Of a DNA stretch of 52,438 nucleotides, positions 2,950 to 30,735 are shown piece after piece (the first letter of the stretch is position 1; each line of letters begins with the position of its first letter). This DNA comes from an uncultured Rickettsiales bacterium (GTDB taxonomy: Bacteria > Pseudomonadota > Alphaproteobacteria > Rs-D84), in contig URSG01000004.1 of NCBI GenBank assembly GCA_900550565.1, positions 1-52,438 of the forward strand, read 5' to 3'. The notes under the pieces were generated by a model. It was not told where the DNA came from, ran no database searches, and was given only the letters and a program-made list of their open reading frames with translations. The translations under genes and the position numbers were made by a program.

Positions 2950-3348
2950 CTATTTCACAACCAGTCTGCGCCCCGAACCGTGTTCTGTCAGATAAATATG
3001 AATTGTATCATTTGGCAAAACATCTGTGGCAATATCGGGCCACTCTATCAACGTAATATCGTTTGCGATTGCATACGGCAACCCGATTTCCGTCAATTCT
3101 GATGCGTCATTTATACGATACAGGTCAAAGTGCGATATGCCATCATAATTTTGCACAATGGTAAACGTCGGACTGGGGACAACAGTATCATCACCACGCA
3201 ATGTTTGAATTATTGTGCGTGCAATCTCGCTCTTGCCCATACCCAGGTCGCCGTGCAACGCCACGCACACCGGCGCACGCAAGGTTTTCGCAAATTCCAG
3301 CGCCCAGGCACGGGTTTGTTCAACACTGTCCAGTAAATATTCCTTCAT
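2950..3348 (-). CDS. tsaE: tRNA t6A37 biosynthesis ATPase TsaE (YjeE)
   Basis: The P-loop GDLGMGKSEIAR and the ~130 aa size are typical of TsaE. Confidence 0.85.
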   Translation of the reverse strand: MKEYLLDSVEQTRAWALEFAKTLRAPVCVALHGDLGMGKSEIARTIIQTLRGDDTVVPSPTFTIVQNYDGISHFDLYRINDASELTEIGLPYAIANDITLIEWPDIATDVLPNDTIHIYLTEHGSGRRLVVK

Positions 3349-3353
3349 CTATC

Positions 3354-5348
3354 TTACTCCACCAATAACAAGTCATCTTCCAGTTTATGAATTTCGTCAC
3401 GCAATGCGGCCGCATCTTCAAATTCCAGGTTTTCTGCCGCCGTGCGCATTTTCTTGGTCAAATCTTTTATCTGTTTGCGTATGCTGTCAGCGTCCATAAC
3501 CCCACCAGATTTATCATACACAAAACGACGGGTCTTGTCTGTTTTTTCTGTTTTTTCGCCAACCTGGGCAAATATAGCCTTGGACACAGTTGTCGGCGTA
3601 ATTCCGTGTGCGGCGTTGTATGCCATCTGTTTTTCGCGACGACGCGCCGTTTCGGTCAATGCCGCGTTCATAGAATCTGTTATTTTATCCGCATACAGAA
3701 TCACGCGTCCATTTGCATTACGCGCCGCGCGCCCGATTGTCTGAATCAGCGACCGCGTTGAACGCAAGAATCCCTCTTTATCCGCGTCCATAATTGCAAC
3801 CAGTTCACATTCTGGCACGTCCAGCCCTTCGCGCAACAGATTGATTCCAACCAGCACATCATATTTTCCCAAACGCAAATCACGCAACAATTCAATACGT
3901 TCCAGCGTTTCAATATCACTGTGCAGATATTTTGCGCGCACGCCATTTTCGTTCAGGTAATCAGTCAACTGTTCCGCCATTTTCTTGGTCAACGTTGTCA
4001 CTAATACGCGCCCAGTGGTGTGTTTAATTTGTTCCAATAAATCATCAACCTGGTTCGCCGTTGGGCGCACATCACAGACCGGGTCCAACAATCCTGTGGG
4101 ACGAATAACCTGTTCGGCCACAATGCCACCTGATTGATTTAATTCCCATTCAGCCGGCGTCGCAGACACAAATATCGTCTGGGGGCGCAGTGCGTCCCAC
4201 TCGTCAAACGTCAGTGGTCGGTTATCAATACACGCCGGCAAACGAAATCCATACTGCGACAATGTTTCTTTGCGTGCGCGGTCACCACGTGACATCGCCG
4301 AAATCTGTGGCACGGTCACGTGACTTTCATCAATAAACAGCACCGCATCACGCGGCAGGTATTCAAACAGTGTCGGCGGTGGCATACCCGGCGCACGTCC
4401 AGATAAATAACGCGAATAGTTTTCAATTCCGCGACACGTCCCGGTTGATTCCATCATTTCAACATCAAAATTCACACGTTCGCGCAAACGTTGCTCTTCC
4501 AGATACTTCATATTTTCGTGAAAGTATTTCAGGCGTTCTTCTAAATCTGTTTTAATTTGACCGATTGCCTGTAAAACACTGGGCATCGGTGTTGCATAGT
4601 GCGTATTTGGATAAACTGCAATTCTGTCCAGTTTATGTAATTTTGCACCCGTCAGTGTATCAAATTCCCAGATTTCTTCTATTTCATCGCCCCAAAACGA
4701 AAGTTTCCACGCACGGTCTTGGGAATGCGACGGAAATACGTCCAGTGTATCGCCACGCACACGAAAATTACCACGTTCAAATGCCACGTCATTGCGTTTA
4801 TACTGAATATCCACCAATGCGTGCATAACATCGCCCTGGCCGATTTTATCCCCTGCGCGCAAGACCAGTTTCATACCGGCATACTGTTCTGGCGACCCCA
4901 TACCATAAATTGACGACACAGACGATACAACGATAACATCGCGTTCTTCCAGCATAGCACGCGTCGCACTGTGCCGCATACGGTCCAGTTGTTCATTTAT
5001 AGACGCATCTTTGTCAATGTATGTGTCGGTGGTTGGCATATATGCCTCGGGCTGGTAATAATCATAATACGACACAAAGTATTCAACGTGATTGTGCGGA
5101 AAAAACGATTTCATTTCCGTATATAATTGCGCCGCCAGGATTTTATTCGGTGCCATAATCAATGCCGGCCGCGATAATTCTGCGATAACGTTTGCCATCG
5201 TGAACGTTTTACCAGAACCCGTCACCCCCAGCAACACCTGGGAACGCCGTCCATCACGAACACCGGCCACCAATTCAGATATGGCCGCCGGCTGGTCCCC
5301 CATGGGGGCATAATTGCTTTCCAGTGAAAATATACTTTTTTTGTTCAC
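3354..5348 (-). CDS. uvrB: excinuclease ABC subunit B
   Basis: [12 protein letters not shown] Walker A, helicase motifs and the C-terminal UVR domain ([12 protein letters not shown]). Length 664 aa. Confidence 0.97.
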
Positions 5349-10120: not shown

Positions 10121-10615
10121 TTTGGTCCCTTTTTGTTTTATTCCCCAGGTGCCAAAATAATGATTGATTGAATTCGGCACCCAAATGATTTTCACAGGGG
10201 CGCGGAATCCGCGCGGTGCCACCCTGAATTTATAACTTGCTACATGCACACCCCCCCATTCCATGGTTGTCAGTCATATCAACACGGGTCAGGTATGTAT
10301 TTCACACAATATTATAATCAAAAAATACCACCCTGCAACAATAAAAATTCCCAATAATTGGGGATTTTTATTCATTCATTTTGCTTTCCGGCAATATGTT
10401 TCCAAATATATTTGGTTCAACGGCACGCCACTTTAATTTGCTTTCTAAATCCTTGTACTTATATTTAGTTATATTGCAAAAAGCAGGTAAAATAAACAAT
10501 ACGTATTACGAATCTTAACCATATTTTTTGAATCAATAACCCACAAAGAATATAACAGATTGTATTGAAGTTGATTTCAAAAAACACATAGGATAGAATT
10601 ATATCCATAATAAGA

Positions 10616-12148
10616 GTGTATTACAGCATGAAAGATATATCAAATATATTCAACTTATCACCAAATGAATTAGAAAAAAAATCTAAATCAACCAGATCAT
10701 TATGGTCTGATACAGCACCACAAATTGTAGAATTTGCACAAAAACTTTCAAAATTTATTATCAAATCTGACACCCCGTATGTATTGGCTCTGGACGGTGG
10801 TTATGGAACAGGTAAAACCCATTTTTCTAGTAGATTTAGTATATTGTTAGACAAACGTCTAAGAACAATATATTTTAGCGCATGGGAACAAGATTATATG
10901 GTTGACCCATTTGTTGTATTTTCTGAAAAAATTATATGGATTGCTAGAAAGCAAGCGAATGAAACGGAAATTACAGATAAAATCTTAGAATCCTTAGCAA
11001 AAGCAACAAAAATTAGAGCCGAATTTGGCATTTGGGGATTATTCAAGGTTGAGGCAGAACTCTCCGGTGAAGACCTCATAAAAAAATTATTTCCCGAAAA
11101 ACAACGTTCTGACCTATTTATTGAATTGAAAGTTTTGCTATCTAATTTTATACAAAATTTACCAAATAAAAAACTAGTTATGATTGTTGATGAATTAGAT
11201 AGATGTCGTCCCGACTACGCTGTAAAAATACTAGAAACAATTAAACATTTTTTTGATATTCCTGGGCTTATTTTTATTCTTCCTATAAATTCCAAAAAAT
11301 TAAACACTTATGTGAAAGGTTTTTATAATATTCCAAACGATACTTTCGCCGACGGGGAGGATTATTTACAAAAATTTATAAATGAAACTATTGACGTACC
11401 ACAACTGAACTACAACAAAATTTGTGAAGACAGAATAAAACTTGCTGATTTTGGTCACCATATATCAAATATAGAAGGAAATTTTAATAGTATACAAGAA
11501 TTGAAAAAATGGATCGCCGAATACGCAAAACAAGCACATCTTTCATATAGGGAAACCATCGAGATAATAAAACGTGCTAAATATTTTTGTAAAAATTATT
11601 CAGAAGAAATAAGATGCAGATTACTGGCCTACCAATTATGCAATAAATTATACAAACAAAAGAATAAAAATTCTTCTAATCCAGCTACTAGGGCTTCAAC
11701 ATTAAAATTCGAAAAAAATTATATGTATAAAGAGGGCTATGAAGAATCTCAAAAAGAAATACTGCTAAAAGCAGATTTATTTAATGCTCATACACGATTA
11801 GAATTTCCAGGCCACGCAACCACTTCAAACGTACAAAATATTTGTCATAACATCTCTTCGCTACAACAAAACGCATATTCTTATAAGATAATGTTTTCTA
11901 CTATTGAAAAAATTAAAAACGAATTAAATAAAATAGACATAGAACATTATGTTCCTTACCAATCTTATTGGAGCACCGTAACGAAAGCTCAACTCCGTGA
12001 AAAGGTTCAATGTATACAAAATTATTTGAATCAAGCTAAGCAAAACTTATCAAATTTCCAACAAATAACAGGTTCGGATGATTCTGACGATGAAAGATTA
12101 TCTAGATATGAGGAAAAAATAAAAAATCCAACATCACTATTCAAATAA
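10616..12148 (+). CDS. KAP-family P-loop NTPase
   Basis: Walker A LDGGYGTGKTHF, Walker B LVMIVDELDRCRPDYAVKILETIKHFF (the KAP DELDRC signature) and a long helical C-terminal tail. The start is GTG 10616 or ATG 10628. Confidence 0.8.
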   Translation: MYYSMKDISNIFNLSPNELEKKSKSTRSLWSDTAPQIVEFAQKLSKFIIKSDTPYVLALDGGYGTGKTHFSSRFSILLDKRLRTIYFSAWEQDYMVDPFVVFSEKIIWIARKQANETEITDKILESLAKATKIRAEFGIWGLFKVEAELSGEDLIKKLFPEKQRSDLFIELKVLLSNFIQNLPNKKLVMIVDELDRCRPDYAVKILETIKHFFDIPGLIFILPINSKKLNTYVKGFYNIPNDTFADGEDYLQKFINETIDVPQLNYNKICEDRIKLADFGHHISNIEGNFNSIQELKKWIAEYAKQAHLSYRETIEIIKRAKYFCKNYSEEIRCRLLAYQLCNKLYKQKNKNSSNPATRASTLKFEKNYMYKEGYEESQKEILLKADLFNAHTRLEFPGHATTSNVQNICHNISSLQQNAYSYKIMFSTIEKIKNELNKIDIEHYVPYQSYWSTVTKAQLREKVQCIQNYLNQAKQNLSNFQQITGSDDSDDERLSRYEEKIKNPTSLFK

Positions 12149-12158
12149 CTTTTTAAGT

Positions 12159-12187
12159 TTGCAATAACGCTTTTCATATACTAAAAT
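12159..12187 (+). promoter_or_regulatory. sigma70-type promoter of leader RNA copy A1
   Basis: -35 TTGCAA (12159-12164), 17-bp spacer, -10 TAAAAT (12182-12187). The predicted start is G at 12195. Confidence 0.65.
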
Positions 12188-12194
12188 CTGTACC

Positions 12195-12415
12195 GAATCC
12201 ATGGGGACGTGGGTTCGGGGTCGTTCAAAACCCATAATTGCACGGTGTGAAAACATCGTTATCCGTTTTTGACAGCATAATGGTGTTTTTACACTGTTTT
12301 GCCTGGCCTTTTGGTCGGGTGTCTGTGGCTATATAACAGGTTCGCCGAAATCCACAGGGTCATTGCAATTATGATTTTGAAAATACCCGACCGTCATTCC
12401 CTTGGCGGTCTTTTT
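12195..12415 (+). ncRNA. structured leader / riboswitch-like RNA, copy A1 (class unknown)
   Basis: 221 nt, 100% identical to 15081-15301. It has a 14-bp helix (12242-12255 / 12284-12297), a G.U-rich hairpin (12301-12320), an alternative 8-bp pairing (12313-12320 / 12385-12392), and a terminator (12389-12410) plus T-run. The G.U pairs only work on the plus strand. Confidence 0.7.
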
Positions 12416-12435
12416 TTGCATCAACGGTGGTAAAA

Positions 12436-12894
12436 ATGAAAAAAATAATATTTGTTCTTCCAACAATACTTTTGTGTTCGTGCGCAATTCATTACCCGTA
12501 TACAGGTACAAAAACCATAACAGGCGAAGGCGGCTTTATAGAAAAGTATATTCCCGTTGAACATATTGGCCGTTCTATTTTTGAAAAAGAAATAGATTCT
12601 AAATACGATGGCATTTCATTTTACCGCTCGGGTCTGCCCATGGGGGCAAAATGCACATTAAAGGGATATATAGCAGAATCAAACCTTACGGACGTTGCAA
12701 AATCTGCACTTAAACAAGGGGCAAATGTAGCAACAAAATCAACTATTAAATTATCAAAGAGTTTTGATGATAACAGCGGCCAACTTGATGGAACTTGGGC
12801 CGCTGGGGATTGGTATTATTTATATGATCGGCGGTGGTATAACTGGTATTGGATCAAATTTGCCAAAGGATATAACATTTTTGAATGCAAATAA
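12436..12894 (+). CDS. small exported protein / putative lipoprotein
   Basis: MKKIIFVLPTILLCSCA is a signal peptide with a Cys-containing lipobox-like end. The ATG lies 21 nt after the A1 terminator. Trp/Tyr-rich C-terminus. Confidence 0.5.
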   Translation: MKKIIFVLPTILLCSCAIHYPYTGTKTITGEGGFIEKYIPVEHIGRSIFEKEIDSKYDGISFYRSGLPMGAKCTLKGYIAESNLTDVAKSALKQGANVATKSTIKLSKSFDDNSGQLDGTWAAGDWYYLYDRRWYNWYWIKFAKGYNIFECK

Positions 12895-12910
12895 TAAAAA
12901 GGAACTATCG

Positions 12911-13507
12911 ATGTCAAAATTTAATGAAATTTTTAGTTCTATCCAAATAATTTTGATAATCGTCAAAGCACTTGGTGGATTTCCAGATACAAATTGGCTT
13001 GCGGTGTTTTTTCCAGCATACATTATGATTGGTGTAGAATATTTCAAAATGCTCAATAACAAACCAACAGTTACAAAATCTACAGACCCAAATAGTCAAA
13101 AAATAAATCTTCCTATAAAAAATAACAATGGTGATTTATTTTACCTTTTAATTAATCCTATTTTGGAAGAGCACAACTTATTACAAGATTATTCCATAGT
13201 TTTCTTTAATGAGGTATTTGGGAAACCAGAATTATTTGAATATATCGGGAATATTGACGTTGTGAGTAAATTTGCAACAGATGCCGAATATATCAAATAC
13301 CTATGTGGTGAACGAAAAGAATTTTTCAATGAACTAGTTGCCAGCAAGGGCGCGACATTGAATACTATGATAGGCGTTCTCCTGGATACTCAAGCCAAAG
13401 CAATCGGACTAGTCGCAATTTGGGACACATCTAAAACAATGATGACAACAGACGGAAATTTACGCATAGAATTCACCCAGCTGCCTGTTGGTGTTATATA
13501 TGATTAA
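12911..13507 (+). CDS. hypothetical membrane protein (two N-terminal TM helices plus a soluble domain)
   Basis: ATG 12911 is preceded by AAAAGGAA. The ORF-track start at 12764 overlaps the previous gene and is probably too far upstream. Confidence 0.45.
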   Translation: MSKFNEIFSSIQIILIIVKALGGFPDTNWLAVFFPAYIMIGVEYFKMLNNKPTVTKSTDPNSQKINLPIKNNNGDLFYLLINPILEEHNLLQDYSIVFFNEVFGKPELFEYIGNIDVVSKFATDAEYIKYLCGERKEFFNELVASKGATLNTMIGVLLDTQAKAIGLVAIWDTSKTMMTTDGNLRIEFTQLPVGVIYD

Positions 13508-13743
13508 GACTACTTTAATAGATTAAAAAAACGATCACTAACAAACGCAAAGTAGATGGTGCATTTCTGGTGCCCATACTTAATAAAAGTTTGGACAACT
13601 GGAACGGATTCTATAATGAAATAATCAAAACAAAGAAAGCGGCATTGCCGATATTTTACGCATTGCGAATGGAAGGTCTATGCCCGCCAAGAAAACCAAA
13701 TAAGCAATCACCAGAAAAGAATAAGAATTATGGATATTAATAA

Positions 13744-14589
13744 CTATGATTTTACAATCAACCTCAGCGCAACTTCTTGATCAGAAATCCAAGCCTCTTG
13801 GTGGTTATGATAAACAGATAATCTTGCATCTAACTCATTCATTCTTGCTGTAAATTCCATTTTTTGCATCGGACTAGTTGGAGCAACGCTTATTTTTTCG
13901 TATTCTTTTGAACACCAATTTTGAAAATCTTTTGAGTCTTGTATTTTACGACGAATCAAAAAATCATTTGTCATAGACGATGCATATTTATAAGCATCCA
14001 AAACTGTATGTTGGCCATCTCCGTCAACATCATATGGATTTTTTATCCATTTGAAAAAGTAATACAAAAATACATTCGCGGCCCAATTGCATTCCGACTC
14101 TATGCTTTGATAGCTTAAAGAAGGGTAGAAATTGCTAGCTCCTACAACACAAATCTTAGATTGGCGAGGCATATTAAATATACCTGAATAACATTGACCT
14201 AATAACAACAGGCCATCTGTCACCCCAGGTATTTGTTGCATCGTATCCAACAACTCCGATGGTTTAATTCCTTCCATTCCATCTATACTACCATGAGAAG
14301 AAACAACGCAACCCAAAAAAGCAATATCTTTAAATGTTTTTAATTTTGGTATTAATTGGTCTATATTGTATAGTTGCCCTGAAGATAATCCATTGGCTTC
14401 TAGGAATGTACTTGCACTAGGCAAACCGGTAAAATAATAAATATTATCTTCGCGATCATTTTGACGCTCTTTTATTATTCTTGCCGCATTGATAATATCA
14501 AACATAAACCTCGGTGTATCATCCCTGCCACAAACAAATACCCATTTTGTATCTTGATTTGGGTTGACACGCGACAAAATATGGACCAT
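13744..14589 (-). CDS. caspase-like (clan CD) cysteine peptidase-like protein
   Basis: Each putative catalytic residue follows a hydrophobic strand: FLGCVVSSHG (His99-Gly100) and GLLLLGQCYSG (Cys133). The 34-aa His-Cys spacing fits clan CD. Confidence 0.5.
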   Translation of the reverse strand: MVHILSRVNPNQDTKWVFVCGRDDTPRFMFDIINAARIIKERQNDREDNIYYFTGLPSASTFLEANGLSSGQLYNIDQLIPKLKTFKDIAFLGCVVSSHGSIDGMEGIKPSELLDTMQQIPGVTDGLLLLGQCYSGIFNMPRQSKICVVGASNFYPSLSYQSIESECNWAANVFLYYFFKWIKNPYDVDGDGQHTVLDAYKYASSMTNDFLIRRKIQDSKDFQNWCSKEYEKISVAPTSPMQKMEFTARMNELDARLSVYHNHQEAWISDQEVALRLIVKS

Positions 14590-14591
14590 GA

Positions 14592-14873
14592 CTAATCCTT
14601 TTCGAATATCACAGGATCTGTTTCATCATATTTCTTGTCGTCTGGAAGACCTATAATTGCATTCCCATTTTTGTCCAACAAATATTTATTGCCACTTAAA
14701 CGCAATATATACTTAGTTCCCAATGAATCAAAACCATCTTTTTGCGCGAATAATCCCAACTGCCCGGCATTTATCATGTCCTTAATTTGTGGAGTGAGCA
14801 TTGTTAAGTCTGAATTATAATTCAAAATCACTTTTTGCCTCTTTTTTATTTTTTGATGGCGATTATTGCGCAT
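14592..14873 (-). CDS. hypothetical small protein, operonic with the peptidase-like gene
   Basis: Its stop is 2 nt upstream of the ATG of the downstream ORF. No SD is obvious, so the start is uncertain. Confidence 0.4.
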   Translation of the reverse strand: MRNNRHQKIKKRQKVILNYNSDLTMLTPQIKDMINAGQLGLFAQKDGFDSLGTKYILRLSGNKYLLDKNGNAIIGLPDDKKYDETDPVIFEKD

Positions 14874-15045
14874 AACTACTACTTAGTAGCGCTTGTATTA
14901 TATCACAATTTGAAGCCATTTTATAGTCAATTTGAACATTTGCAAGAAATAAAAAATCCCCTGTCGTGAGAAAGGGTATATTTCTTTACTACAATGTTAT
15001 AATATATATTCGTCTTTTTTCAAGCCCAATCATACTTTATTTAAA

Positions 15046-15074
15046 TTGCAATGACTGTCTTAATGTACTAAAAT
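15046..15074 (+). promoter_or_regulatory. sigma70-type promoter of leader RNA copy A2
   Basis: -35 TTGCAA (15046-15051), 17-bp spacer, -10 TAAAAT (15069-15074). The spacer sequence differs from copy A1, but the hexamers and spacing are conserved. Confidence 0.65.
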
Positions 15075-15080
15075 TATATT

Positions 15081-15301
15081 GAATCCATGGGGACGTGGGT
15101 TCGGGGTCGTTCAAAACCCATAATTGCACGGTGTGAAAACATCGTTATCCGTTTTTGACAGCATAATGGTGTTTTTACACTGTTTTGCCTGGCCTTTTGG
15201 TCGGGTGTCTGTGGCTATATAACAGGTTCGCCGAAATCCACAGGGTCATTGCAATTATGATTTTGAAAATACCCGACCGTCATTCCCTTGGCGGTCTTTT
15301 T
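15081..15301 (+). ncRNA. structured leader / riboswitch-like RNA, copy A2 (class unknown)
   Basis: Identical to 12195-12415 over all 221 nt. It ends in the same terminator, 18 nt before the ATG at 15320. Confidence 0.7.
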
Positions 15302-15319
15302 ATATCAAAAGGATAAATT

Positions 15320-15571
15320 ATGATTTACAAATTATACACTGGCGGCCAACCTATATTGGCCTTATTGGAACTGATTGCGGGGATATGCATCCCGGCACTC
15401 ATGTTAGGCGGAGTCATAGAATTGTTCGGACTGGCCGATACGTATGTAGGACAAGATAAAACACTAAGTCTTGTTTTTGGCGCGCTGGGTTTCTTTGCAT
15501 GCATGTTCGTATATCAATACATCGCATATAATTTATTGCCAAAATTACTAAAAACAAAGGACACAAAATGA
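15320..15571 (+). CDS. small integral membrane protein
   Basis: SD AAAGGA upstream of the ATG. The 83-aa product has 2-3 hydrophobic helices. Confidence 0.5.
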   Translation: MIYKLYTGGQPILALLELIAGICIPALMLGGVIELFGLADTYVGQDKTLSLVFGALGFFACMFVYQYIAYNLLPKLLKTKDTK

Positions 15572-15924
15572 AAAAGATAATAATTGCGCTGATTATATGT
15601 ATGACCGCTGTAACTGGTTATGCACGCACTATGAGCGTAGAGCAATTTGATAGAGAACACGCAGCATACCAACAAGAACTTTATAAAACCGCCCGCGAGG
15701 CTGGATATGACCCGACATCTAAAAAATCCATCGCGGAGCAATACAAAGCTAAACGATTGACCGAACAGACCATAAAACATCGTCTACAATTACAACAGGA
15801 ATACGAGCGAGAATACAACCGATATATCTGGTTAGAAAAAAACAAATCAATGCTGCTGTTTGCGCTGGCAGCAATCGGTGTTTTATCCATTTTTGTGGCA
15901 AGCCGTTACAAAAAGCATAAATAG
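15568..15924 (+). CDS. small exported / C-terminally anchored coiled-coil protein
   Basis: ATGA overlap with the previous ORF. It has a signal peptide (MKKIIIALIICMTAVTGYA) and a C-terminal TM helix. Confidence 0.5.
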   Translation: MKKIIIALIICMTAVTGYARTMSVEQFDREHAAYQQELYKTAREAGYDPTSKKSIAEQYKAKRLTEQTIKHRLQLQQEYEREYNRYIWLEKNKSMLLFALAAIGVLSIFVASRYKKHK

Positions 15925-15981
15925 GTCAATATGGCAATATTTTAAGGCTGTCTAACGATTTTCCAAACGAGAATTCTTTAA

Positions 15982-29492: not shown

Positions 29493-29569
<77 letters not shown>

Positions 29570-30121: not shown

Positions 30122-30505
30122 TTATTTACAACCAACAAAAGCCCAAACTTCATCAGATGGTTGTGCAATTTTTACACGAACAGCCGTCTGGTCTGCGTCA
30201 CACATTTCGGCATCAATAAACGCAACCTCTATATAATCATGTTCTGTATCGTTTAAAACCATATTAAATACATTTTCGTCACTATCAAAATTATACCGGA
30301 ACATACCATTAGGTTTATTTTGTTTTATATCAATAACCCACTGAATATCAGACGGACATTGATATATCGTATGATTACTGTCTGTTTCTAATACAGTACA
30401 ACCATCAAAAATACGTGGAATATCATACTTTGCAACGTCTGCTGTTTCTGCCAAGGATACAAGCGGAAACAAAGACGCGATTATAGAAATTGTATATTTT
30501 TTCAT
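30122..30505 (-). CDS. small secreted Cys-containing protein
   Basis: Signal peptide MKKYTISIIASLFPLVSLAET, and SD AGAGGGGA upstream. It lies immediately downstream of leader RNA copy B. Confidence 0.5.
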   Translation of the reverse strand: MKKYTISIIASLFPLVSLAETADVAKYDIPRIFDGCTVLETDSNHTIYQCPSDIQWVIDIKQNKPNGMFRYNFDSDENVFNMVLNDTEHDYIEVAFIDAEMCDADQTAVRVKIAQPSDEVWAFVGCK

Positions 30506-30525
30506 ATTTTTCCCCTCTTTTTATT

Positions 30526-30728
30526 AAAAAATTAAACCACCAACAAGATTGGTGGTCGGGGAGTTGGTGTCAGCAAACAAATGCTCCGTCCCTTTCGGTA
30601 AACGGCTCCCCAACCATAAAAGCCAGGGATGATAACGATGCAAAAAGCACCGAAAACATCAGATTACGATGCTTTTGCACCGTGTTTGCGGGCCACCACA
30701 GCCCCGAAACCCAAATCTCTTTGGATTC
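30526..30728 (-). ncRNA. structured leader / riboswitch-like RNA, diverged copy B (same family as A1/A2)
   Basis: It starts with GAATCCA like A1/A2 and shares TGGGTT(T)CGGGG and CACGGTG-AAA-CATCGT-ATC (19/23 identical). The equivalent helices carry compensatory changes. It has a GAAA tetraloop hairpin, a 10-bp antiterminator pairing (30615-30606 / 30563-30554) and a terminator CCACCAA-TCTTG-TTGGTGG (30555-30537) plus T-run. Confidence 0.6.
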
Positions 30729-30735
30729 ACGTTTT

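Follow-up and report, generated by a model that had tools for sequence, protein, structure and literature searches.

A Repeated Leader RNA With Mutually Exclusive Sequestrator, Antiterminator and Terminator Helices as a Probable Transcription Attenuator of Accessory Genes in Uncultured Gut Alphaproteobacteria

The Leader Unit and Its Copies

A stretch of 52,438 nucleotides (nt) from an uncultured Rickettsiales bacterium of the Alphaproteobacteria (contig URSG01000004.1, assembly GCA_900550565.1; hereafter "the window") carries three copies of a structured leader RNA, of which two, A1 and A2, are identical and the third is diverged. The unit has a fixed order: a sigma-70 promoter is followed by the ~220-nt leader, an intrinsic terminator, a Shine-Dalgarno site and an ATG ~18 nt on. 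A1 stands before a gene for a predicted lipoprotein of 152 amino acids (aa) (12436-12894, + strand), and A2 before a gene for an 83-aa membrane protein (15320-15571, +). A sequence-only reading of this DNA had proposed that the end of the repeated RNA forms a three-helix switch of sequestrator, antiterminator and terminator. The comparison reported here leads us to regard this element as probably the 3' end of a leader RNA that acts in cis, and as the expression platform through which this RNA governs transcription termination before accessory genes.

The promoter of A1 (12159-12187, +) consists of TTGCAA (12159-12164), a 17-nt spacer and TAAAAT (12182-12187), and its -10 box ends 7 nt before the motif GAAUCC. 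All parts of the leader that follow lie on the + strand. Hairpin P1 at the 5' end (12194-12217; CGAAUCCAUG-GGGA-CGUGGGUUCG, with a GNRA loop) is taken from the minimum free energy (MFE) fold. Adjacent to it, at 12218-12241, lie the 5' strands of helices P2 (GGGU, 12218-12221), P3 (UUCAAAA, 12224-12230) and P4 (CAUAAUUGC, 12233-12241), whose partner in the terminator state is, according to RNAalifold, the segment 12365-12388. The P5 region (12242-12297) is a single hairpin of 21 base pairs (bp) in the MFE fold of the window copy, whereas the family consensus has a hairpin P5a (GGUGY-GAAA-RCAUC) and a second short one (GGUG-U4-6-CACC); both forms are possible because the four strands of the region are near-repeats. 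In variants from termite gut the two-hairpin form is favoured, and the alternatives may constitute a second exchange inside the leader.

The three helices of the proposed switch follow downstream. The sequestrator hairpin, P6 (12301-12320; GCCUGGCC-UUUU-GGUCGGGU, -12.6 kcal/mol), is the local hairpin described before: GCCTGGCC at 12301-12308 pairs with GGTCGGGT at 12313-12320 over 8 bp and a TTTT loop, and its three G.U pairs fall at 12301:12320, 12304:12317 and 12306:12315. The 3' arm of P6 is also contained in the 5' arm of the antiterminator (AT) at 12313-12322 (GGUCGGGUGU), which pairs with the 3' arm at 12383-12392 (AUACCCGACC) in a duplex of -16.9 kcal/mol. The earlier count of 8 Watson-Crick pairs between 12313-12320 and ACCCGACC at 12385-12392 is correct, but the full helix extends to 10 bp. 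Within the 3' arm, ACCC (12385-12388) can alternatively pair in P2, and GACC (12389-12392) is the start of the intrinsic terminator (12389-12417; GACCGUCA / UGGCGGUC, -12.2 kcal/mol, then U7). The terminator arms, GACCGTCA (12389-12396) and TGGCGGTC (12403-12410), and their overlap with the 3' arm of AT agree with what had been read from the sequence. Two details had to be amended: a run of five T after the stem holds for A2, but A1 has seven (12411-12417), and the gap to the open reading frame (ORF), given as 18 nt for A2 (ATG at 15320) and 21 nt for A1, is 18 nt for A1 as well (ATG at 12436), if counted from the last T. Between the two arms of AT lie two further hairpins. P7 (12323-12357; CUGUGG...CCACAG, inside which GG pairs with CC) occurs in either state and is supported by covariation, while P8 (12358-12376), in which GGUCAU (12358-12363) pairs with AUGAUU (12371-12376) in the MFE fold of the isolated 3' domain, belongs to the ON state only. 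The loop and 3' arm of P8 hold the 3' strand of P4 (12365-12373). As a whole, the region 12190-12418 has an MFE of -96.2 kcal/mol, compared to -62.7 +/- 4.5 kcal/mol for shuffled sequences (z = -7.4).

The A1/A2 repeat spans 12184-12415 and 15070-15301, and the two copies show 100% identity over the 223 nt from the first hairpin through the terminator. A2, with its promoter, leader and terminator at 15045-15301 (+), is identical to A1 from 15079, and has its AT arms at 15199-15208 and 15269-15278 and its terminator at 15275-15296; a covariance model of the family 3' domain (R1, see below) matches it at 15199-15278 with 74.2 bits. The pattern GGTCGGG...CCCGACC is present in these two copies only, with zero occurrences expected by chance. 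The promoters of A1 and A2 are ~75% alike, and the flanking DNA is unrelated. In the sister strain L001, the two leader copies differ at two positions, and the relative L006 has the lipoprotein gene without any leader. Together with the identity of A1 and A2, these patterns suggest that the leader has recently been copied or gene-converted as a unit.

The third copy (30519-30732, - strand; nhmmer E = 1.1e-39) is ~65% identical to A1 and A2, and R1 matches it at 30554-30615. All three competing helices are intact, with P6 as CCCUGGC/GGUUGGGG, AT as GGUUGGGGAG/CUCCCCGACC and the terminator as GACCACCAA/UUGGUGGUU, and its MFE fold is in the terminator state. This copy has its own promoter (TTGATT/TATAAT), precedes a gene for a 127-aa secreted protein (30122-30505, -) and adjoins a tRNA-Met gene (29493-29569, +).

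Relatives in Metagenomes

Relatives of the leader were collected with a scan pattern built on the 5' hairpin as conserved in L006, the most diverged relative then at hand. Run on metagenomes of the JGI, this pattern returned 67 further stretches, nearly all of which are full-length relatives of 190-260 nt; about six chance matches were estimated. A profile search of the retrieved DNA added more copies that lie outside the pattern, including the third copy of the window. The family sample represents one metagenome collection. A genome scan yielded one true relative, L002, from a human-gut metagenome-assembled genome, "uncultured Rickettsiales bacterium UMGS860". Two other matches of that scan were judged to be chance: L003, which on reading shows no similarity beyond a 20-mer, and L004. 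A blastn search of phage and plasmid collections with the element gave no match, and two exact 20-mer scans of viral contigs returned nothing. The ~60 related RNAs of gut Alphaproteobacteria make up a previously uncatalogued family of ~220-nt leaders.

The promoter and the downstream ORF recur throughout the family. A TANNNT box ends 3-12 nt before GAAUCC in 63 of 66 members, at a distance of 6-7 nt in 57 of these, and a -35 element with at least four of six matches is found in 49 of the 66; the -10 box at fixed spacing before GAAUCC implies a transcription start at hairpin P1. Most members have an ORF that begins 13-31 nt past the terminator and is preceded by a Shine-Dalgarno site, often AAGGGG. 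This gap is too short for another promoter, so the ORFs should be transcribed through the terminator. A promoter of its own and a closely following ORF with a Shine-Dalgarno site are the requirements of a cis-acting attenuator.

Several loci carry more than one copy or a partial one. Two tandem leader-ORF cassettes, 1.27 kb apart, are located at 3100-3329 and 4369-4582 of L051, and contigs Ga0265298_10000005, Ga0265298_10000050 and Ga0209694_1000017 have two copies each. A truncated copy followed by an inverted partial copy lies at 7286-7423 of L057, and L036 (1624-1691) has a stand-alone 3' domain without the 5' domain, whose loop has no obvious complement nearby.

Covariation of the Competing Helices

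Pairing was counted in a MAFFT alignment of 60 distinct members that was fitted to no structure. The AT helix (columns 185-194:297-306) is 97.2% paired with 29 double-change cells, compared to 41-60% for slid-partner controls; P6 is 95.2% paired with 15 double-change cells, and the terminator stem 94.4% with 26. The covariation score of each of these helices was reached by 0 of 500 column shuffles, and pairing falls to 19-68% across the three when the partner is slid by 1-3 columns. The architecture of sequestrator, antiterminator and terminator, which had been proposed from the window alone, is therefore borne out by three helices that are 94-97% paired with compensatory changes among the homologues.

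AT shares nucleotides with both of its competitors. Seven of the ten nucleotides of its 5' arm (columns 186-192) also belong to P6, and the four nucleotides shared with the terminator (columns 303-306) covary with both partners. Column 192 gives an example: where it is U, as in the group of the window, the P6 partner is G and the AT partner is A. A chain of columns that spans all three helices (165-187-304-332) reads A-U-A-U in most members and G-C-G-C in L016, L061 and L074. Pairs that belong to AT only vary as well, with pair 193:298 occurring as AU (25), GU (25), UA (6), CG (2) and GC (2) and in no member unpaired, and pair 194:297 as GC (48) and UA (8). Column 299 covaries with its AT partner (UA in 7) and not with an extension of P2 (GA in 7). 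Covariation of both alternatives at the columns they share is the pattern that selection on both states would be expected to leave. A static pseudoknot was rejected on the same grounds, since AT and P6 share seven nucleotides and both covary.

Covariation extends to the remaining helices, though not to all in equal measure. The innermost pair of P1 covaries (AU 44, UG 6, UA 5, CG 4), as does pair 37:292 of P3 (CG 19, GC 16, AU 14, UA 9; RNAalifold), P4 has 13-30 double changes per pair, and P7 covaries at 12:55 (CG 20, UA 10) and 29:44 (GC 24, CG 11). P2 is invariant in the scan set and covaries (AGGA/UCCU) in the second copy of L063, which lies outside the scan pattern. The helices contain 282 G.U compared to 25 A.C pairs, and the sense fold is more stable than the antisense fold in 59 of the 60 members, the latter being worse by a median of 19 kcal/mol; strand-specific stability and the excess of G.U imply selection at the level of the RNA, on the sense strand. 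Past the terminator stem, at least five U are found within 9 nt in 56 of 60 members.

Predicted Global Refolding and Similarity to sRNA-Xcc1

The claim of an exchange among three helices holds, but the switch is larger and amounts to a global refolding, in which P2, P3 and P4 are exchanged as well. In the terminator-permissive fold (RNAalifold), P1 is followed by P2 (GGG:CCC), which is stacked on the long-range helices P3 and P4; together, these three enclose P5a/P5b, P6 and P7, and the terminator comes next. AT is incompatible with P6, with P2 (shared CCC) and with the terminator (shared GACC). No trans partner for the P3/P4 5' strands was found elsewhere in the window.

The fold of the other state is indicated by a known RNA family. 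When 16 family loci were searched permissively against Rfam, RF02221 (small RNA (sRNA)-Xcc1) matched the 3' domain in four of them at a sub-threshold 37.5-40.2 bits. In this alignment, AT is the closing stem of a three-way junction, of which P7 (first hairpin of RF02221) and P8 (second hairpin; GRRUCA/UGAUUU, with the P4 3' strand as its loop) are the arms, and the MFE fold of the isolated 3' domain of the window copy is this same junction. The layout of sRNA-Xcc1, a 9-10-bp closing stem with two hairpins, is present in the form of AT, P7 and P8, and both AT and P7 covary. Detection is reciprocal: R1, the covariance model of the family 3' domain in the junction fold, matches a bona fide Xcc1 element on a Pseudomonas plasmid (L078, 1497-1573) with filters off at 27.2 bits (E = 1.5e-5, although E-values of this model are rough), the next-best match having 8.7 bits. 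With default filters, in a search of 84 kb, R1 missed this element, which itself scores 72.6 bits to RF02221. The ON state is thus modelled as nested, with P3 and P4 opened, and not as a pseudoknot; the idea of AT as a pseudoknot over intact P3 and P4 was dropped in favour of the nested, Xcc1-like fold after the RF02221, R1 and MFE results.

sRNA-Xcc1, ~88 nt in length and known from Xanthomonas integron cassettes as well as plasmids, islands and temperate phages, is the closest Rfam family. It was described as an integron-encoded trans-acting sRNA (PMC2996969; PMC3531072), and has been found upstream of symE in Xanthomonas cassettes (bioRxiv 10.1101/2025.06.18.660453), in seven copies in Xylella (PMC12189769) and upstream of an ORF6N gene in APSE phages (bioRxiv 10.1101/2020.03.17.996009). 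Common to both families are a closing stem of a G-rich and a C-rich strand (GUCGGGAG...CUCCCGAC versus GGUCGGGGAG...CUCCCCGACC), a first hairpin with AUACAA...GAAA...GAA, a second hairpin and a UUUGA-type junction. Both are located directly upstream of an ORF in accessory or mobile DNA, often in multiple copies, and in both, segments of the second-hairpin loop and the junction are complementary to a nearby partner in cis. In contrast to sRNA-Xcc1, the window family adds a 5' domain of ~125 nt (P1 to the 5' arm of P6), the strands of which are able to unzip the junction, and an overlapping intrinsic terminator. Its partner strands do not cover the Shine-Dalgarno site but are located upstream, its hosts are gut Alphaproteobacteria, its downstream genes are not antirepressors, and its promoter is found ~120 nt upstream of the closing stem, before P1, whereas the Xanthomonas RNA has its 5' end at the closing stem (PMC2996969).

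With riboswitches and other attenuators, the leader shares three successive, mutually exclusive helices with a terminator directly before the ORF, a competing helix that is weakened by G.U where the antiterminator has G-C, and a multi-helix junction domain upstream. A terminator lies between promoter and ORF, and it is overlapped by a conserved antiterminator, which is in turn opposed by a conserved anti-antiterminator. In contrast to riboswitch platforms and classical attenuators, the window element has no Rfam match, the downstream genes share no pathway, and the ON state is a conserved autonomous fold, both closing strands of which are sequestered in the OFF state, so that four strands are exchanged. 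Searched at gathering thresholds, Rfam 15 reports three tRNAs only for the whole window, neither the element nor the third copy had a meaningful match when Rfam was searched permissively, and in the permissive search of the window element and the 16 family loci, the models for the T-box leader and the P1 c4 RNA (RF01695) had no match. We class the window RNA as a probable attenuator leader built around an Xcc1-like domain, in which the 5' domain and the terminator would make the junction one state of a switch.

Proposed Mechanism and Direction of the Switch

The proposed mechanism builds on what the comparison demonstrates, namely the helices, their mutual exclusivity and conservation, the promoter and the coupling to an ORF. 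Transcription would begin at P1 from the unit's own sigma-70 promoter. In the OFF state, P2, P3 and P4 would arise when the G-rich strand that follows P1, together with the P3 and P4 5' strands, pairs with the 3' part of the leader. With P6 holding GGUCGGG, CCCGACC would be free at its GACC end, the terminator could form, and transcription would halt ~18 nt before the ORF. In the ON state, GGUCGGGUGU and AUACCCGACC would form the 10-bp antiterminator that closes the three-way junction with P7 and P8. P8 would loop out the P4 3' strand, and the resulting fold would be the one given by Rfam for sRNA-Xcc1. This would exclude P2, P3, P4, P6 and the terminator stem, and RNA polymerase would enter the gene. 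An effector might bring about read-through by stabilising the junction or by capturing the 5' strands.

The energetics bear on the direction of this switch. In most members, folding of the complete leader gives the OFF state as the MFE structure or close to it, and P2 contributes -6.3 kcal/mol in the window copy. Because nearest-neighbour energies and the order of synthesis both favour the OFF fold, an effector should be needed for read-through: the default would be OFF, and on these folding energies we infer that an effector stabilising the junction is required. Likewise, termination is presumably modulated, and an effector presumably exists. Such an effector could be a small molecule or ion or, slightly less probably, a protein or RNA factor, with the remaining expectation falling to a kinetic mechanism or to none.

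A number of observations weigh against control of termination by such a switch. Forcing AT costs a family median of 5 kcal/mol before the terminator 3' arm is made and 12 kcal/mol at full length; for the window copy, the forced fold is 4-10 kcal/mol worse before the 3' arm and ~14-16 kcal/mol worse at full length, and the equilibrium probability of AT is ~0. The sequence-only reading had itself named non-competitive alternatives as evidence that would count against a switch, and the AT state is indeed not competitive by its own energy. We take this to reflect the direction of the switch and not its refutation, because covariation supports both states. Next, the stem of P8 is conserved (UCA/UGA in 54-57 of 60 members, with R:U pairs) and shows no double changes. 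A run of four or more U starting within 2 nt of the terminator stem is found in 30 of the 60 members, and half are without it. P1 (in all but its innermost pair), the GGGG strand and CCCA were set by the scan pattern, which inflates their conservation. As P1 and P2 were thus fixed and P8 lacks double changes, part of the model is based on conservation and not on covariation. The window copies have no match to RF02221 at E <= 10, and the 37-40 bits of the family stay below the Rfam gathering score of 53 for RF02221. Finally, the downstream genes have no common function or pathway, which is unusual for a metabolite riboswitch. This diversity makes a classical metabolite riboswitch less probable, and would fit a signal of the second-messenger type or a protein or RNA factor.

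Alternative Functions

The Xcc1-like domain raises the possibility that the main function of the element is to encode a stable small RNA acting in trans, as sRNA-Xcc1 has been annotated, and that read-through into the ORF is incidental. The alternative pairings would then serve to mask and unmask the Xcc1-like domain, or to process it, and such a role and that of an attenuator are not mutually exclusive. In favour of this reading, promoter and terminator are both part of the unit, and its ground state is predicted to be the terminated form; it is multi-copy, with three in 52 kb, and A1 and A2 are 100% identical despite their different flanks, as expected if the RNA itself is the product. Moreover, Northern blots in Xanthomonas revealed Xcc1 as a species of ~88 nt (PMC2996969). 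However, the short distance from the terminator to the ORF in most members leaves no room for another promoter, and the overlap of AT with the terminator by four nucleotides that covary with both partners speaks for a switch. The P3 and P4 sequences also vary among the copies of one genome, which fits pairing in cis and not a shared trans target. A primary role as a trans-acting RNA is therefore unlikely in our judgement.

The second alternative derives from the phages in which bona fide Xcc1 elements are found. The c4 RNA of phages P1 and P7 (immI operon, RF01695) and IsrK of Gifsy-1 are structured RNAs in the leader of their own operon, and have single-stranded segments complementary to a site in the same transcript. 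RNase P processing and structural details of the RNA are known for c4. Accordingly, an Xcc1-like junction plus NCCA could be excised, e.g., by RNase P, and act as antisense RNA via its loop and junction strands, in which case the "terminator" hairpin would chiefly serve structure or stability. The NCCA after the closing stem of Xcc1 presumably resembles the tRNA-like end recognised by RNase P in the P1 c4 precursor. A motif [A/G]CC[A/C] follows the closing stem in five of five Xcc1 elements, and GCCA or ACCA is found in 23 of the 60 family members; at this place (12393-12396), the window copy has GUCA. All five bona fide Xcc1 elements examined lie upstream of antirepressor (Ant) or BRO genes, and in four of them the second-hairpin loop is complementary to the Shine-Dalgarno region of the gene, with a different sequence each time and a duplex energy that was reached by 0, 8, 13 and 35 of 500 shuffles. 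In phage P1, the genes c4, icd and ant belong to a single operon, and C4 antisense RNA is required for the repression of ant (PMC8198154).

For the window family, however, the partner strands are found upstream instead of overlapping the Shine-Dalgarno site, and complementarity to the ribosome-binding site downstream was not seen in the window copy. Past the junction there is a G+C-rich hairpin, with a U-rich tract behind it in nearly all members, and the Rfam C4 model finds no match, neither in sequence nor as a covariance model. c4, which acts in trans, prevents the translation of icd; the window RNA has upstream strands as its pairing partners and a terminator as its read-out. For these reasons, a role of the window element in c4-type processing or translation control is quite improbable. 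The Xcc1 elements before Ant or BRO genes are found in temperate phages and on a plasmid (L078, 1497-1620; L079, L081 and L082, 901-1040; L080, 901-1260), and 44 phage records match. Bona fide Xcc1 precedes antirepressor genes as c4 does (PMC8198154). In two of the four with complementarity between loop and Shine-Dalgarno site, the adjacent junction is complementary, too. For the phage and plasmid elements, these sequences suggest control of ant translation in cis or by c4-like antisense pairing.

That the repeats are DNA-level inverted repeats of a small mobile element (resembling a miniature inverted-repeat transposable element) or a static pseudoknotted RNA without switching, as might be considered given identical copies in unrelated flanks and in variable low-GC islands beside tRNA genes, is highly improbable: frequent G.U and rare A.C pairs and the less stable antisense folds point to RNA, covariation over at least six helices is unexpected for transposase-binding ends, and helices that share seven of the ten AT nucleotides and covary cannot coexist. 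Leader-peptide attenuation was rejected for want of a conserved ORF or start codon: only some members have an AUG in the P6 loop, its frame differs among them, and the UUUU loop of the window copy has none.

Downstream Genes and Genomic Context

The window is part of a bacterial chromosome, as indicated by aspS, an AsmA-like gene and PagL. A1 and A2 are located inside a low-GC island (10300-15980; 32-37% compared to ~45%) between aspS and tRNA-Thr/tRNA-Met. The predicted lipoprotein encoded after A1 has no Pfam family, and its homologue is named Candidatus Enterousia sp., after a genus of Alphaproteobacteria; a second ORF of 198 aa follows at 12911-13507 (+). In L009/L010 (5001-5525), the public gene call for the homologue of the lipoprotein (174 aa) has its start within the leader RNA (4814-5046) and is therefore too long; the true start codon is the ATG located 18-21 nt past the terminator. 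The membrane protein gene after A2 is followed by a gene for a 118-aa protein (15568-15924, +), and the same pair of genes also follows a diverged leader copy in L006. Across the family, the downstream genes are mostly without a Pfam family, and the few matches are HTH_3, GmrSD_N, OMP_b-brl, Acyl_transf_3 and List-Bact repeats. An N-terminal hydrophobic segment is present in 38 of 54 downstream products.

Upstream of A1, the island encodes a KAP-family nucleoside triphosphatase (NTPase) (10616-12148), which matches the candidate defence family PDC-S20. When the neighbouring proteins were compared with Pfam, NCBIfam and PADLOC, no candidate RNA-binding effector was found, and the KAP NTPase/PDC-S20 was the only protein identified. 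In relatives, the corresponding slot carries Fic, DarT-Macro (DarTG) or PIN genes instead. Judged by its gene content, the island is probably a variable defence hotspot.

Biological Significance

One RNA design precedes dozens of unrelated genes, among them those for lipoproteins, secreted and membrane proteins, Xre-type regulators and a GmrSD nuclease. It is possible, and put forward here tentatively, that the Xcc1 junction is not an independent trans-acting sRNA but a widespread cis-regulatory sensor of mobile and accessory genes, which operates by strand exchange and binds a common effector, and would thus represent either a new riboswitch class or a c4-like immunity RNA that is processed by RNase P. 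If this is true, it would come in two types. In that of gut Alphaproteobacteria, upstream partner strands are combined with a terminator, and at least 60 leaders would make up a regulon of surface, secreted and defence genes, while in that of temperate phages and plasmids the partner would be the ribosome-binding site of an antirepressor gene. The link suggests a testable cis-regulatory role for Xcc1, an Rfam family without a mechanism since 2011, which sits before the antirepressor genes of Shiga toxin (Stx) and other prophages. Moreover, both conformations of the RNA are visible in its covariation, which is uncommon and makes the leader a good model for conformational RNA switches. For uncultured Alphaproteobacteria of the gut, the rumen and termites, such as Candidatus Enterousia, for which no regulation is otherwise known, the leader is a candidate for a global switch that acts on surface and island genes.

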